A stretch of DNA of 64,000 nucleotides from Candidatus Moraniibacteriota bacterium (GCA_049304095.1 JBAQNU010000024.1:11893-75892); one strand, 5' to 3'; positions 15,301-21,547 are shown, numbered from the stretch's first letter. Notes: generated by a model not told the origin, from the sequence alone. Numbers and translations: made by a program.

Positions 15301-16212
15301 ATGTTATTTTTTAGAAAACAAAATTTAATAAAACTGAGTGAGGCTGGCAAGGAGTATCTGGATTATTGTGAGCTGGAAAAAGAAATGGTTCCTGCTTCAA
15401 TCTATGAATATAGTAAGGTTGTTGCGTGGACGATAGATATTCTCGGAGACTTAAATGTTGGTGAAATAGCGGAAGACCACATTGCTAAATTAAAAAAAGA
15501 GTATAATAGGAGAGGATTGAAGCCAACTACCAGAGCCCATAACTTATCGGTTATCCGTGAGCTTTTGAGATTTTGTCAGTATGGATTGCGTCTCCAGGTG
15601 ATGGATTTTGAAAAAATAAAACGACCAAAAATTCCCAAACGCAGAGTGGATTATCTGACCGAAGAAGAACTGAAGCATTTTTTCAATTCAATCGGAAAAA
15701 GAAGTATTCGAGATTCTAGATTTAGAGCACTGGTTTCGATTCTGATTTTTACGGGTTGTCGAATAGGTGAAGCACTAAATTTGAAAGTCCAAGATGTGGA
15801 TTGGGAGAAAAAAGAAGCCCTGATTGTTGGCAAGGGCAATAAGCAGAGGAAGCTATATTTTACAGATTTAGCACTAGAATGTATTCGGGAATATCTAGAA
15901 AAGAGGGGCTATGAGGGTAAGTTCATTTTTGTAGCTGAAGGCAAGACAAATCGGTGGGACAGAAATGATGCCCAGAGGAATTTCAGGAATTATCGTAAGA
16001 AGTTGGGGTTAGCTGGAAATGTTACAGCTCACACAATACGTCACAGCTTTGCCACGATTTTGATGAAAAAAGGGATTAGCCTTGGACACATTCAAGTTTT
16101 ACTTGGACATTCAGATATTCAAACTACCAGCAGGCATTATTTAGGTATCCTAAGCGATGACGAGGCAAAACAGGCTCACGAAAAGGGGATGAATATGGAT
16201 AGCTGGCTGTAA
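15301..16212 (+). CDS. Tyrosine recombinase/integrase
   Basis: AHTIRHSFATIL...LLGHSDIQTTSRHY catalytic signature. Confidence 0.8.
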   Translation: MLFFRKQNLIKLSEAGKEYLDYCELEKEMVPASIYEYSKVVAWTIDILGDLNVGEIAEDHIAKLKKEYNRRGLKPTTRAHNLSVIRELLRFCQYGLRLQVMDFEKIKRPKIPKRRVDYLTEEELKHFFNSIGKRSIRDSRFRALVSILIFTGCRIGEALNLKVQDVDWEKKEALIVGKGNKQRKLYFTDLALECIREYLEKRGYEGKFIFVAEGKTNRWDRNDAQRNFRNYRKKLGLAGNVTAHTIRHSFATILMKKGISLGHIQVLLGHSDIQTTSRHYLGILSDDEAKQAHEKGMNMDSWL

Positions 16213-16440
16213 TGATTTGCCAGATTGCTAAATGTTGATTTATACTTAGTAGAAGAATATGTGGGGATAAGACTCGCATTTTTCATCTCAGCAATCATAG
16301 CGTTTTCGGTTGTAAGAATTAATTTTCAAATAATCTTTACGTTTATGATAAAACTACAAATCGGAATTTTTGGAGGCGTCATTTGCGTGGAGGGCTTTAG
16401 GTGGCCTTTCTTCAAAACTATGATTAATGGGCTACGATGA

Positions 16441-16500
16441 AAAGTGGGTTTTGGTCTCACGCTAAATGGCGTAAGGGGGGTTCGATTCCCCCTCTCCACA
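16441..16500 (+). ncRNA. tRNA-like T-arm plus acceptor 3' strand; either a tRNA 3' remnant/att site or the 3' end of a tmRNA
   Basis: GGGGG-TTCGATT-CCCCC T-arm followed by TCTCCAC+A. No canonical D or anticodon arms immediately upstream. A 5' partner GTGGGGA at 16254 would give a 246-nt tmRNA-like molecule. Confidence 0.35.
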
Positions 16501-16627
16501 CAATAATAAGCTCATCTCTTCCCACGAATCACCTCTGAAGCTTCATATATGCGGAAAATCCCCTGCGCCTGCTTCGGTAGTGTGCAGGATTTTTGTATGG
16601 TTGACTTAATTCTACAGCGAGGTAACA

Positions 16628-17305
16628 TTGAATAAACTGCACACGATTATGCTAACAAAAGGAACCAAAAAATCATTCTCAGAAGAAGCCAAACGACAGC
16701 TTGCGTTGGTAAATAAGAGCATTGGAAACTACGGCAAACCAATCCGTGGCAGATATCTTACGTTATATCACGGAACCAATAGTCGGAACCTGGAGAAAAT
16801 TCTTAAAGAGGGGATAAAGCCAAGAGGCAAACACAAATCCAACTGGGAAAGTGGTATTGGAATATCCAGAAATGACTTGGTGTATTTGACCTACTGTTAC
16901 GCTTGTTACTTTGCGTCTGCTTCTTGCAAGAAGAAGGGCGATGTGCCAGTTATTATTAAACTAAAAATAGACACTAAAAACACAGAACTATTCCCAGATG
17001 AAGAGTTTATTTTCAGAGCCTTACATAAAGCTGGCGAGGGGTTAGACCATAAAAAAGCGGTGATGATGTATAATAAGATTGACCCTCGAAAATATGATGG
17101 CAAGAAATATTGGGAAGCCAGTCTGAAATTTATGGGTACGGTTTGTGCAGAGTATATTCCAGTGGGAAGTATCGTGGGGTATGCTGAGGGAAACTCTTCA
17201 GAATTTATGAAGAACTGTGACCCTTCCATTTCTCCCATAAATTATAAAATAATGTCTGCCAGCTATATTGATTATCTGGAAAGTTTGGATTATAAACAAG
17301 TATAG
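16628..17305 (+). CDS. ADP-ribosyltransferase-fold protein resembling the KptA/Tpt1 catalytic domain
   Basis: LTLYHGTNSRNLEKILKEGIKPRG matches the KptA block [25 protein letters not shown]. It lacks the KptA N-terminal domain. Confidence 0.45.
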   Translation: MNKLHTIMLTKGTKKSFSEEAKRQLALVNKSIGNYGKPIRGRYLTLYHGTNSRNLEKILKEGIKPRGKHKSNWESGIGISRNDLVYLTYCYACYFASASCKKKGDVPVIIKLKIDTKNTELFPDEEFIFRALHKAGEGLDHKKAVMMYNKIDPRKYDGKKYWEASLKFMGTVCAEYIPVGSIVGYAEGNSSEFMKNCDPSISPINYKIMSASYIDYLESLDYKQV

Positions 17306-19442: not shown

Positions 19443-19465
19443 GCCTGTGATTCTAGGGAGATTTT

Positions 19466-20434
19466 GTGGTAGAATTGGATTATATGAAAGTAAATATACT
19501 CCAAAAATACTACGATAGCTTCATAGCCCAAAAAGATAACCAATCCTTTTTAATTGGGTTGGCCGATTATATCAGATTCATTTTAGCTGATGAAAAATCT
19601 AAGGAAATTATTTCAGAAATACAAAAATCCAAGGAGGCACTTTTGGCCGAAAAAGATAGTCTGGAGAAAACAGTTGACAGTGAAACAAGGATTGCCAAAA
19701 AAGAATACCTTGACATGACGGGATCATCAGAGACGGTTGATGATATTTCTCTCGCGGATAAAGTGCTCTATTCTCAGTCTCATCCGAAGTTGGCCGAGCT
19801 GGATAAAAAAATAAAAGAGGAAACGGAAACTTCAATTTGGGGAGCTTGGGATAAAATAAGTTCGGTTTATTCCGGATATTCAAATTCAACATTGAGCGAC
19901 AATCTGGATATAGCGCGCTACGTGCCTTACGCGAATAGAATTCATAATTATCTCTTGGGAAAACTGGATGATAAAGCAGAATCAACTGGCAGTTATTCGG
20001 TTATGGATTTTAAGAAAAGCAATAATGATTCAATTTTGGAAAAGGATGGACTGAAAGACATCAGTTCCATCATAATCGTCACAAGAAACCCGGGACTTAG
20101 GGACGAGTCATTGTGGTTGGTTTTTAATAACGACTTTCGCAATAAAGTTAAATTTTTAGCCAAGAAAAAACAAGCAGGCGATAATTATATCAAGAAGCTA
20201 CATGAGATTGTCGATAAAAGTAAATATGGCGCGAAGGTTCTACATGATCATCAGATAGCAACCACAATAAACTCAAAGATATTTAAAAGAGTGGGAGTCG
20301 CGGGGGTGTATAGGCAAAAGACAATTGTGGAAAAAGATGGAGATAATTTTGGGATAAATCAGGAAATTGATATTAATATTGTGCCAAAAGGAATGCTTAA
20401 GGAAGAGCAGGCTAAGTTTTTTCCAAAGGGATGA
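19466..20434 (+). CDS. Hypothetical protein
   Basis: Long ORF between two integrase genes; no recognisable motif. Confidence 0.45.
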   Translation: MVELDYMKVNILQKYYDSFIAQKDNQSFLIGLADYIRFILADEKSKEIISEIQKSKEALLAEKDSLEKTVDSETRIAKKEYLDMTGSSETVDDISLADKVLYSQSHPKLAELDKKIKEETETSIWGAWDKISSVYSGYSNSTLSDNLDIARYVPYANRIHNYLLGKLDDKAESTGSYSVMDFKKSNNDSILEKDGLKDISSIIIVTRNPGLRDESLWLVFNNDFRNKVKFLAKKKQAGDNYIKKLHEIVDKSKYGAKVLHDHQIATTINSKIFKRVGVAGVYRQKTIVEKDGDNFGINQEIDINIVPKGMLKEEQAKFFPKG

Positions 20435-20581
20435 TTTCCGAGTAGTTTCTGTCTGAAAATAATATTTACGAGAAAAGAATCGCTTATCAGAGCGGTTTTT
20501 TTGCGTTTGATTTACGAGCAAAGGTTATTTATTTGGTGCATGAAGTTGAGATAATAAGAGCATAAGATATAAAACCAATAA

Positions 20582-21547
20582 ATGATTTCCATATTTTCCG
20601 ACAACTTAAACCTTTCTGACAGTTTTGACCGCTTCTTTGAGGATATTGAGGCGAATTGTTCGCTGTCCAAAAGTTCAATCGAAAAATACAAGGAAATCCG
20701 TCCCCGGATAATTAAATTCTTTGGCAATATAAGCATAAAGAAGATTGATGCTCGGATGATTACTAAATATAAGCAGTATTTGAATCAATCAAGTCAGAAG
20801 AAAGACAACCTCAGTCCCAGTTATAAAAATCAGCACCTGACATTACTCCGTTTGCTTCTGAAATTTGTGAAGGAAAAAGAAGGCGCAAAGGTGATGGATT
20901 ATGCTCAGATTTCCAAGTTCCGAGTTCCAATTAAGGAGGTTGAGACATTGAATGAGTCGGAGTTGTCCACGGTGCTTGACTACCCAAATGAGAAAACAAT
21001 TACTGGGTGTCGACTGAAGGCATATTTTGAAGTTTCATTTTCAACCGGCTGTCGCGTGAAAGAAGTTTTGGGCTTGAAGATATCGGATATTAATTTCAAA
21101 GACAGGATTGCTCACATTCGGACGAAAAATAACAAACCTCACACCATTTTGTTTTCCGATTCCTCAATTGAAGCGATTAACAAATATTTGGCTATGAGGA
21201 AAGATAATCATCCAAATTTATTCGTGACTGCAACTCCCAATCCCAAACCATGGCAAACCAACGATGTTGAAAGGAGTCTTCGAATGATCGGACGAAAACT
21301 GAAGCTTAGTAAGAATCTCAGACCACATATTTTACGCAAATCAGCCGCGACGCACATGTATAAAAACAACGTTTCGCTCGGAGTCGTGCAAAATTTTTTA
21401 AACCATTCCTCCGCCAGAACCACGCTGACTTACTATTTAGGCAATTCGAATTTTGAAGAGCTAAGAAGGAATCACGACAGAGTTATGAATAATCTGGATT
21501 TTAGAGATAAGACAGATTCATCTGGAGAGGGGGTGAGAACTACATGA
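20582..21547 (+). CDS. Tyrosine recombinase/integrase
   Basis: HILRKSAATHMY...FLNHSSARTTLTYY. Confidence 0.8.
   Translation: MISIFSDNLNLSDSFDRFFEDIEANCSLSKSSIEKYKEIRPRIIKFFGNISIKKIDARMITKYKQYLNQSSQKKDNLSPSYKNQHLTLLRLLLKFVKEKEGAKVMDYAQISKFRVPIKEVETLNESELSTVLDYPNEKTITGCRLKAYFEVSFSTGCRVKEVLGLKISDINFKDRIAHIRTKNNKPHTILFSDSSIEAINKYLAMRKDNHPNLFVTATPNPKPWQTNDVERSLRMIGRKLKLSKNLRPHILRKSAATHMYKNNVSLGVVQNFLNHSSARTTLTYYLGNSNFEELRRNHDRVMNNLDFRDKTDSSGEGVRTT

Follow-up and report, generated by a model that had tools for sequence, protein, structure and literature searches.

The DNA analysed here, referred to as the window, is a stretch of 64,000 nucleotides (64 kb) from Candidatus Moraniibacteriota bacterium (GCA_049304095.1, JBAQNU010000024.1:11893-75892) that carries several genes for tyrosine recombinases and, between and behind them, short direct repeats, which we discuss as likely boundaries of gene islands. 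Three of the recombinase genes had been pointed out on the plus strand in an earlier note made from the sequence alone, and all of them, int1 (15301-16212, encoding 303 amino acyl residues), int2 (18558-19442), and int3 (20582-21547), are indeed intact. Their products match the Pfam family PF00589 (Phage_integrase) with E values of 2e-37, 8e-30, and 1e-34, respectively, each contains a Phage_int_SAM domain as well, and in pairwise comparisons they are only about 30% identical. They display the two-domain, Xer-like architecture without an arm-binding domain and belong to the Xer-like type of the PF00589 superfamily. Int2 can be aligned end to end with XerD from E. coli (1a0p), the R, HxxRH, and Y motifs being visible, and the catalytic residues of Int1 and Int3 were read by eye from an alignment of the three integrases. 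Two further Xer-like integrases of 283 residues are encoded inside the window (2836-3687 and 29688-30539) and a sixth integrase 5 kb upstream of it.

The repeats of this region are of two kinds, more complete copies and half-sites. A first complete copy (17928-18192, plus strand) consists of a motif that we call X(a), the 16S 3'-terminal sequence ATCACCTCCTTTCT, AGGGAG, and a structured trailer with a terminator at 18169-18192. A second one (53257-53530, plus strand) consists of a different motif, X(b) (AAAATTTGCCGACAAT), followed by the 3' terminus of a 16S rRNA gene and a trailer. In a self-comparison of the window, 17934-18161 and 53271-53503 are 75% identical over 239 nt, and a third copy is encountered in a related strain. 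A left half-site is located at 16521-16535 on the plus strand, where the X(a) motif CCCACGAAT is followed by CACCTC, the first 6 nt of the 16S-end core, before the similarity breaks off. Right half-sites are found on the plus strand at 17859-17868, where the "solo core" TTCTAGGGAG is preceded by a conserved left flank (CGGAGGATT), and at 19451-19466 (TTCTAGGGAGATTTTG), 8 nt past the int2 stop codon; the latter doubles as ribosome-binding region of a GTG start at 19466. The earlier note had recognized both underlying repeats. The 15-mer CCCACGAATCACCTC occurs exactly at 16521 and 17928 (0.03 expected), the first position having been given off by one as 16520, and it does bracket a gene similar to ADP-ribosyltransferases (ART) and two open reading frames (ORFs) for acidic peptides. 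The four occurrences of the 10-mer TTCTAGGGAG lie at 17859, 17945, 19451, and 53282 (0.09 expected), the second of which had been placed at 17944.

These sites delimit the region differently from the three tandem integrase islets that had been proposed. The gene int1 lies at the right end of one island, which ends in the order xseA-xseB-HEPN-int1-small ORF-X(a) half-site. The ART/peptide islet (16536-17858, 1.3 kb) is situated between the left half-site and a right half-site, and an island of about 35 kb (17945-53270), bounded by the two trailer copies, holds both int2 and int3. The G+C content steps from 0.35 to 0.40 at 16 kb.

For comparison, 118 loci, labelled with numbers of the type L017, were collected from related genomes and metagenomes. 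A scan of one genome per species for the core-plus-trailer pattern CACCTCCTTTCTAGGGAG...GCTGGTCG retrieved 43 loci, nearly all from Moranbacteria or Patescibacteria. In 29 of these, the sequence 5' of the trailer is AGTCGTAACAAGG...GGATCACCTCCTTTCT, the genuine 3' end of 16S rRNA, and in L017 (1423 bits) as well as in L025 the match to the Rfam small-subunit (SSU) rRNA model (RF00177) stops precisely at CACCTCCTTT in the core, so that in relatives the repeat is contiguous with a bona fide SSU rRNA gene. Therefore, the repeated element comprises the final 13-14 nt of the 16S rRNA gene and a structured trailer of about 250 nt that ends in an intrinsic terminator, and this, rather than a tRNA or transfer-messenger RNA (tmRNA) gene as suggested in the earlier note, is the source of the presumed attachment (att) cores. 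The 10-mer is the 3' half of the anti-Shine-Dalgarno hairpin and the 15-mer is the X(a) junction motif fused to the first bases of the 16S tail. Orphan copies lacking a 16S body number 16 in the genome scan, to which both window copies have to be added, and copy 1 of the window aligns with the sequence directly following genuine 16S genes. In all orphans, homology to 16S begins at one position, (A)TCACCTCC, and a small set of conserved motifs, X(a) (..TTCCTCCCACGAAT), X(b) (..TTTRCCGACAAT), X(c) (..CCGTTCTCAAA), and others, is found in front of it, one in each copy.

The invariant site, (A)TCACCTCCTT/TCTAGGGAG, comprises the anti-Shine-Dalgarno tail of 16S rRNA and the first bases of the trailer, and its two halves form a hairpin in RNA and an inverted repeat in DNA. 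This hairpin, in which the anti-Shine-Dalgarno CCUCCUU is paired with AGGGAG, is the first helix of the trailer RNA, for which 38 of 51 predicted pairs show compensatory changes and whose structure is retained in the orphans; the trailer does not match any family of Rfam 15. Other identities for the element were considered and discarded. A larger 16S remnant does not fit, as only the last 14 nt match, and a minus-strand ribosome-binding site (AGGAGGTGATTCGTG) leading a gene does not fit either, as no conserved minus-strand ORF exists; the minus-strand ORF of 169 residues at 52750-53259 looks like an antisense artefact. Past the trailer terminator, a second core-like motif (TGATTnnAGGGAGATTTTAT) occurs at 18216-18235 of the window and likewise in L031, L043, L025 (position 685), and L051 (position 8748); thus the trailer itself is flanked by two related AGGGAGATTTT sites.

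Related genomes provide four pairs of empty and occupied sites, a comparison that the earlier note had proposed, and the repeats do sit at the island boundaries. In L085, int1, 1 kb of cargo, X(a), core, and trailer precede a flank that in L033 follows the 16S gene, its core, and its trailer directly; the two sequences are 96.9% identical over 1033 nt and 100% over the last 777. Corresponding pairs, each with a 16S-adjacent empty site, are L011 and L016 (91% over 1890 nt), L007 and L047 (86% over 1183 nt), and L087 and L068 (80.6% over 2257 nt), the X(b) junction of L007 being of the same type as that of orphan copy 2 in the window. In all four pairs, homology starts 2 nt before CACCTCC, which places the breakpoint at the core.

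Complete islands between a genuine 16S end and an orphan are encountered as well. In L017 such an island measures 4.45 kb and its two trailers are 94.8% identical, in L010 it measures 1.7 kb, and among 62 metagenome loci carrying an X(a) junction, seven possess islands of this kind of 1.6-7.6 kb. Additional cores lie on the same strand in 25 cases and on the opposite strand in 4 (0.84 expected per strand), at least two sites in direct order are present in 17 loci, and the window holds two units in tandem and L036 three; within this clade, tandem arrays of such junctions are common. The accretion in tandem at one att site that had been suspected is therefore supported by direct-orientation junctions at island boundaries in relatives, except that the site is the 3' end of 16S.

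The half-sites of the window have counterparts elsewhere, too. Left half-sites keep an X motif plus CAC, CACCTC, or CACCTCCTT and then diverge (window 16521, L036, L081, L102), the breaks in L036 and L081 being CAC| and CACCTCCTT|, and a truncated left site is also found in L114. Right half-sites keep (T)TTCTAGGGAG next to an unrelated left side (window 17859 and 19451, L017, L025, L051, and others). Left and right half-sites are complementary, and for this reason we tentatively place the exchange point in the TTT between the CTCC and GGAG arms of the inverted repeat. The composite arrangement of the window, a solo core followed after 55-77 nt by an X junction, recurs in L036, L059, L081, L102, L111, L011, and L007.

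Recombinase genes keep a fixed relation to these sites. In the window, a small gene for a DUF5049-like protein (18373-18573, plus strand; Pfam) overlaps int2, and the pair lies directly after the trailer of orphan copy 1. Genes like int2 are usually preceded by a DUF5049-like gene, and such pairs follow genuine 16S trailers in L009, L029, L025, L061, and L077. Homologs of int2 or int3 are located directly after genuine 16S trailers in L009, L031, and L026 and a few kb downstream of them in L020, L025, and L029. With 76% identity over 936 nt, the window segment that starts at 17937 (17937-19400) matches the int2 region adjoining 16S in L031, and next to genuine 16S genes (L009 and L031) int3-like genes and the same phage-like genes follow the int2-like ones. 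On the other side, 14 of the 62 metagenome loci have an int1-like gene 0.19-4.1 kb upstream of X(a) and co-oriented with it, and none has one downstream. An order of int1, promoter, cargo, and X(a), in which the cargo varies, is shared by the window, L003, L051, L059, L063, L080, L085, and L099. The stretch from int1 to X(a) is empty in L059 and L063, holds a single gene in L051 and L080 and four genes in L003, and in the window comprises the small ORF together with the ART cassette. The putative promoter in question, TTGCCA-18-TATACT (16217-16246, plus strand, 10 of 12 matches), is situated just past the int1 stop codon and reads into the variable cargo; a similar TTGAnTTATAnT element exists downstream of the int1 orthologs in L003, L080, L085, and L099.

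At E values of up to 1e-40, 89 homologs of Int1 were found, and most of the full-length ones are 54-86% identical. Its nearest sequences in the PDB are the XerC-like 4a8e and XerA 5hxy. The strong conservation of Int1 and its synteny with xseAB suggested a housekeeping Xer recombinase. This candidate is weakened because int1 rides with the island end in L085 versus L033, because the protein stays under every Xer cut-off, and because int1 is deleted in L003, L004, and L005. In these three independent assemblies of a strain that is 97% identical on the left flank, only a remnant of int1 persists, an 814-bp, in-frame-like deletion between short GCAA repeats having taken out its body (window 15350-16164 versus 10868-10923 in L003/L004/L005). 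Right after the int1 stop codon, identity to this strain falls from 97% to roughly 60%; no nucleotide or protein match was detected between the downstream genes of L003 and the window, and the right side is not collinear within the window. A promoter-like block (GGAGTGGATAAGT..TTGACT..17 nt..TAAyRT) is common to 15235-15290, 18305-18352, and 29615-29662, 5' of int1, of the DUF5049-int2 pair, and of a 283-residue integrase gene, respectively. In its spacer lies CCACGAA, a sequence similar to the X(a) motif, and the block could be a recombinase binding or autoregulation site.

It is probable that, in this genome of Moranbacteria (a group of the candidate phyla radiation, CPR), gene islands have accumulated as an array at the 16S rRNA gene, on its 3' end, and that the window covers the distal portion of this array. 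An incoming element would bring its own copy of the core and a structured trailer of about 250 nt with terminator, so that after insertion the 16S gene would retain an intact end and trailer, while the old end and trailer would be shifted downstream and would then lie behind the end motif of the element (X(a), X(b), etc.). Repeated rounds would generate tandem islands separated by orphan 16S ends. The order expected for the window would be an island whose end is formed by int1, small ORF, and X(a), then the ART/peptide cassette, orphan end 1, the island of about 35 kb, and finally orphan end 2 with the old 16S flank. Orphan copy 2 would thus be the distal, and oldest, att copy; homologs of a gene behind it, at 54035, lie 2.8-4.7 kb past the trailers of L020, L046, and L060. 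The location of the ART/peptide islet between half-sites is what might be expected for a unit inserted into a full site, and a repaired site without the ART cassette would join 16535 to 17859 (CCCACGAATCACCTC + CTT/TTCTAGGGAGCAATTTGAC). The junction of an excised circle of the 35-kb island would read ...AAAATTTGCCGACAATCACCTCCTTTCTAGGGAGAATTTGGTAATAATCGAGAGCACGG... and the emptied site ...TTTCCTCCCACGAATCACCTCCTTTCTAGGGAGATATTGGTAAAATCGTAGAGCATTAC.... Xer-like recombinases of the Int1/Int2 type, possibly together with DUF5049, presumably catalyse the exchange. The crossover would apparently take place in the TTT between CACCTCC and TCTAGGGAG, and in ATCACCTCCTTTCTAGGGAGA strand cleavage would be expected in or next to the TTT.

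The earlier note had a different target in mind, namely a tRNA or tmRNA gene whose 3' end would have taken up the islets one after another; a T-arm behind int1 would be the displaced remnant of that gene, and CCCACGAATCACCTC and TTCTAGGGAG would be the linked att cores. The hairpin is present as described, perfect in its stem (GGGGGTTCGATTCCCCC, 16476-16492) and followed by TCTCCACA (16476-16500 in all, plus strand), and some features seem to speak for such an origin. The segment 16380-16505 folds with z=-4.4, closed by an acceptor-like pairing of 7 bp (16389-16395 with 16493-16499), the sole Rfam match there at permissive E values is a 17-nt T-arm assigned to tmRNA (16.7 bits versus a gathering score of 47), and by chance a window should contain only 0.05 hairpins with a perfect stem of 5 bp and a TTCGAWT loop. 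If the loop is relaxed to the consensus TTCRANY, the expectation rises to 0.53. The check with ARAGORN that had been proposed, run on the 64 kb with introns allowed, in tmRNA mode, and at lowered thresholds, returned only noise and no tRNA or tmRNA gene, nor did Rfam detect one in the 8.8 kb upstream of the window, and none was found in the related loci examined. The sequence of the T-arm is present once, in this contig alone, and for 16213-16627, which includes it, no homolog exists among the 118 loci or viral contigs. Whereas islands in tRNA or tmRNA genes have an intact gene at one end and a direct repeat of its 3' segment at the opposite end, neither is found here, and both repeat motifs are parts of the 16S 3' end and its trailer. 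Since there is no tRNA gene nearby and no homolog at any locus, and since the boundaries are explained otherwise, the T-arm has no detectable role in the island system and no detectable link to the att sites; only weakly beyond chance, it is an unexplained stray that possibly arose by chance. The tRNA/tmRNA model is largely refuted and we consider it highly improbable.

Several observations weigh against an array built by site-specific integration at a 16S gene, and some of them favor other routes. No 16S gene is present in the window or in the 8.8 kb up to the start of the contig, nor therefore in the 26.7 kb available to the left, and an anchor of the array in its own 16S gene is missing here. 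To the left of int1, the segment holds xseA and xseB, normally housekeeping genes, in a synteny that recurs in L053, and it may fit an old, fixed rearrangement as well as a recent island. Neither an excised circle nor an att-bearing episome (attP) was found: there is no matching viral contig and no locus with terminal repeats, and scans of viral contigs for the T-arm, core plus trailer, and int1 relatives yielded nothing. The assembly is a metagenome-assembled genome, and a second assembly (Logan SRR28062512) shows no difference from it (100% identity) in a comparison of 20.7 kb, for which reason it is perhaps not an independent check. The arms flanking the proposed crossover show only weak palindromic symmetry, and several islets (L010 and L017) possess no integrase. 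Furthermore, trailers are mosaic, the first 100 nt or so differing between the near-identical strains L085 and L033, and the orphan of L011 matches the trailer beside the 16S gene of its own genome and not that of L016. Mosaic trailers that are homogenised within a genome indicate that homologous exchange between trailer copies clearly occurs, too, and it could even be the main route. Islands might then enter or move by ordinary homologous recombination between trailers of about 270 nt (Campbell-type crossover or gene conversion), and the integrases might be passengers or serve in dimer resolution or in integration of phage modules elsewhere. The near-identity of trailers within genomes, as in L017 and also in L011 versus L047, and the islets lacking integrases would agree with this. 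It does not account for the sharp and identical left boundary at -13/-14 of 16S, seen in at least four junction classes and dozens of genomes, for complementary half-sites broken within a stretch of 11 nt, or for Xer-like recombinases in fixed position and orientation relative to the sites, and we deem it unlikely as the main explanation.

It has also to be considered that orphans might be kept mainly as RNA, that is, as 3'-untranslated region, terminator, processing module, or anti-Shine-Dalgarno mimic on cargo operons, selection for such a role being behind their spread and DNA recombination being secondary. Besides the covariation and retention of the trailer structure, this would explain that orphans lie directly past stop codons of co-oriented cargo genes and end in terminators, and the invariant CCUCCUU/AGGGAG hairpin would sequester the anti-Shine-Dalgarno sequence; as judged by eye, the UCCUCC of X(a) can pair with a conserved GGAGGA 60-90 nt upstream. 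However, half-sites are left unexplained by an RNA function, as is the fact that orthologous flanks adjoin 16S in some genomes and an island end in others, and the structure might have been retained simply because orphans originated recently from functional 16S trailers. An explanation by RNA function in the main therefore appears quite improbable, more so than homologous recombination, and integration at the 16S end is preferred.

Known systems share some of these traits with the proposed 16S-end array. That elements integrate into the 3' ends of stable-RNA genes is textbook knowledge in the case of tRNA and tmRNA, and a sublocation scheme for elements targeting tRNA and tmRNA genes was reportedly set out by Williams in 2002. 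As in the P4-type islands among these, insertion here would occur at the 3' end of a stable-RNA gene, a replacement segment would keep the gene intact, the displaced segment would end up as a direct repeat on the distal side of the element, successive insertions at the site would give tandem arrays, and a tyrosine recombinase gene adjoins the reconstituted end (16S-trailer-DUF5049-int2). In contrast, the target is the last 13-14 nt of a 16S rRNA gene, the duplicated block runs about 250 nt past the gene through structured trailer and terminator, the recombinases are short (about 300 residues), Xer-like, and devoid of arm-binding domains, and many islets have no integrase of their own; because no tRNA or tmRNA is present, the defining feature of that class is missing.

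Xer/dif systems, XerH/difH and XerA/dif among them, and the integrative mobile elements exploiting Xer (IMEX), such as CTX phage, resemble the present case in that XerD, XerC-like, XerA, and XerH are the nearest relatives of Int1, Int2, and Int3 and in that recombination probably takes place at a short, simple core devoid of arm sites. In contrast to those systems, no dif site at the replication terminus is involved and the elements carry their own recombinases, which miss all Xer equivalog cut-offs: although XerA, XerD, and XerC are the top NCBIfam matches, Int1, Int2, and Int3 score 128-167 bits against cut-offs of 220 (XerA), 330 (XerD), and 335 (XerC). Other invaders of rRNA genes, i.e., LAGLIDADG intron insertions in 16S genes of CPR bacteria or R2-type retroelements in eukaryotic rDNA, similarly exploit the extreme conservation of rRNA as a safe and universal target. 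They sit within the gene and are removed at the RNA level or inactivate the copy, whereas here insertion would take place at the very end, the mature rRNA staying intact, and tyrosine recombinases would be used. LAGLIDADG-type ORF insertions near the 3' end of 16S genes were noted in L010 (3279-4046 and 5050-5520) and in L031 (1629-2102), all coordinates being given with 16S on the plus strand; because of them the Rfam SSU alignment in both loci stops about 0.9 kb before the true, core-bearing 3' exon.

The likeness to integrons consists in a recombinase gene followed by a promoter and variable, co-oriented cargo, in units ending in a conserved structured site, in empty platforms (L059 and L063), in the two tandem units of the window, and in half-sites consistent with insertion of cassettes. 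In contrast to integrons, integron-integrase models are far below their cut-offs (TIGR02249, 52-92 bits versus 265; NF011946, 24-64 bits versus 435), int1 is co-oriented with the cargo instead of divergent, and the sites, which derive from 16S end and trailer and contain terminators, are not attC-like. One might go further and speculate that Moranbacteria possess an integron-like capture platform, whose site would be the anti-Shine-Dalgarno hairpin at the 16S 3' end, where Xer-like Int1/Int2 with DUF5049 would insert promoterless or short cassettes and phage-like elements. Each unit would keep a transcribed mimic of the 16S end, and one sequence would serve as rRNA tail, as RNA-processing or anti-Shine-Dalgarno element, and as att site. 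At present we regard this extended scenario as doubtful.

Targeted full-text searches of the literature did not turn up any description of integration at the 16S 3' end, and we know of no report in which the end of an rRNA gene serves as att site for an element that replaces the rRNA processing and termination trailer. The features described in the earlier note are confirmed and its interpretation is partly supported, and for the proposed 16S-rRNA-end integration and accretion site in CPR bacteria we found no precedent. If true, such a site would account for the location of much of the accessory genome in the tiny genomes of these bacteria, the island cargo here comprising defence systems, a phage-like terminase module, and transporters. 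Metagenome-assembled genomes tend to be broken at rRNA genes, and in them the sequence ATCACCTCCTTTCTAGGGAG without a 16S body can serve as a practical marker of island boundaries. The interpretation also raises the question whether a sequence kept invariant by the needs of translation doubles as recombination site and as RNA module on mRNAs, and the conserved structured trailer at the 3' end of 16S is defined as a new RNA element.

Regarding the cargo, the ART-like gene (16628-17305, plus strand) gives only a weak, below-cut-off match to Tpt1/KptA (PF01885, E=0.007), and a homolog with 52% identity is located directly 5' of the X(a) junction in L072. The two ORFs behind it on the plus strand encode acidic peptides rich in Gly, Asp, and Asn of 37 and 31 residues (17430-17543 and 17584-17679); both are preceded by strong ribosome-binding sites and both are called as genes in L002. 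Nested in the island of about 35 kb is a phage-like module (20582-30779, plus strand; Pfam and Rfam RF03000) that contains int3, an ORF of 139 residues, genes for a Toprim primase-like protein, a D12 methylase, ParB, TerS, and TerL, an ORF of 164 residues, one of the 283-residue Xer-like integrases, and a LOOT RNA. No convincing att-type direct repeats flank this module from int3 to LOOT. The island also contains an ORF of 322 residues, and behind the module follow genes for a helicase, Fic, CBASS (cyclic oligonucleotide-based antiphage signaling system) components, transporters, and glycosyltransferases before it ends in X(b).

A paralogous module of about 10 kb extends from position 3649 of L050 to 3940 of the window and consists of genes for an int3-type integrase, (primase), D12 methylase, ParB, TerS, TerL, a small ORF, and a 283-residue integrase. 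In neither of the two modules were capsid or tail genes recognised, and they may therefore be satellite-like or phage-plasmid-like. The two LOOT RNAs (RF03000; 3818-3940 and 30653-30779, with 101.6 and 87.8 bits) each lie just 3' of the 283-residue integrase gene that closes the TerS-TerL module and just 5' of a gene for a zinc-ribbon/TM2 membrane protein, and the block of integrase, LOOT, and gene start is duplicated with 67% identity (2901-4106 versus 29756-30934). Genes of defence type are dense around the islands (6846-15228 and 31971-36597) and code for an SF1 helicase with MTES_1575 nuclease domain, an OLD-family ATPase/TOPRIM protein, HEPN, a PIF1 helicase, Fic, a nucleotidyltransferase, and the CBASS effector Cap15; a TdeIII-type restriction enzyme is encoded at 63115. 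Finally, a family of intergenic repeats of 67-144 nt, which are 79-88% identical (57431-57573, 58925-58991, and 59685-59826), contains TTGAC..TGCTACAAAT, and each of the three is located 5' of a plus-strand ORF, so that they look like shared promoter or leader regions.

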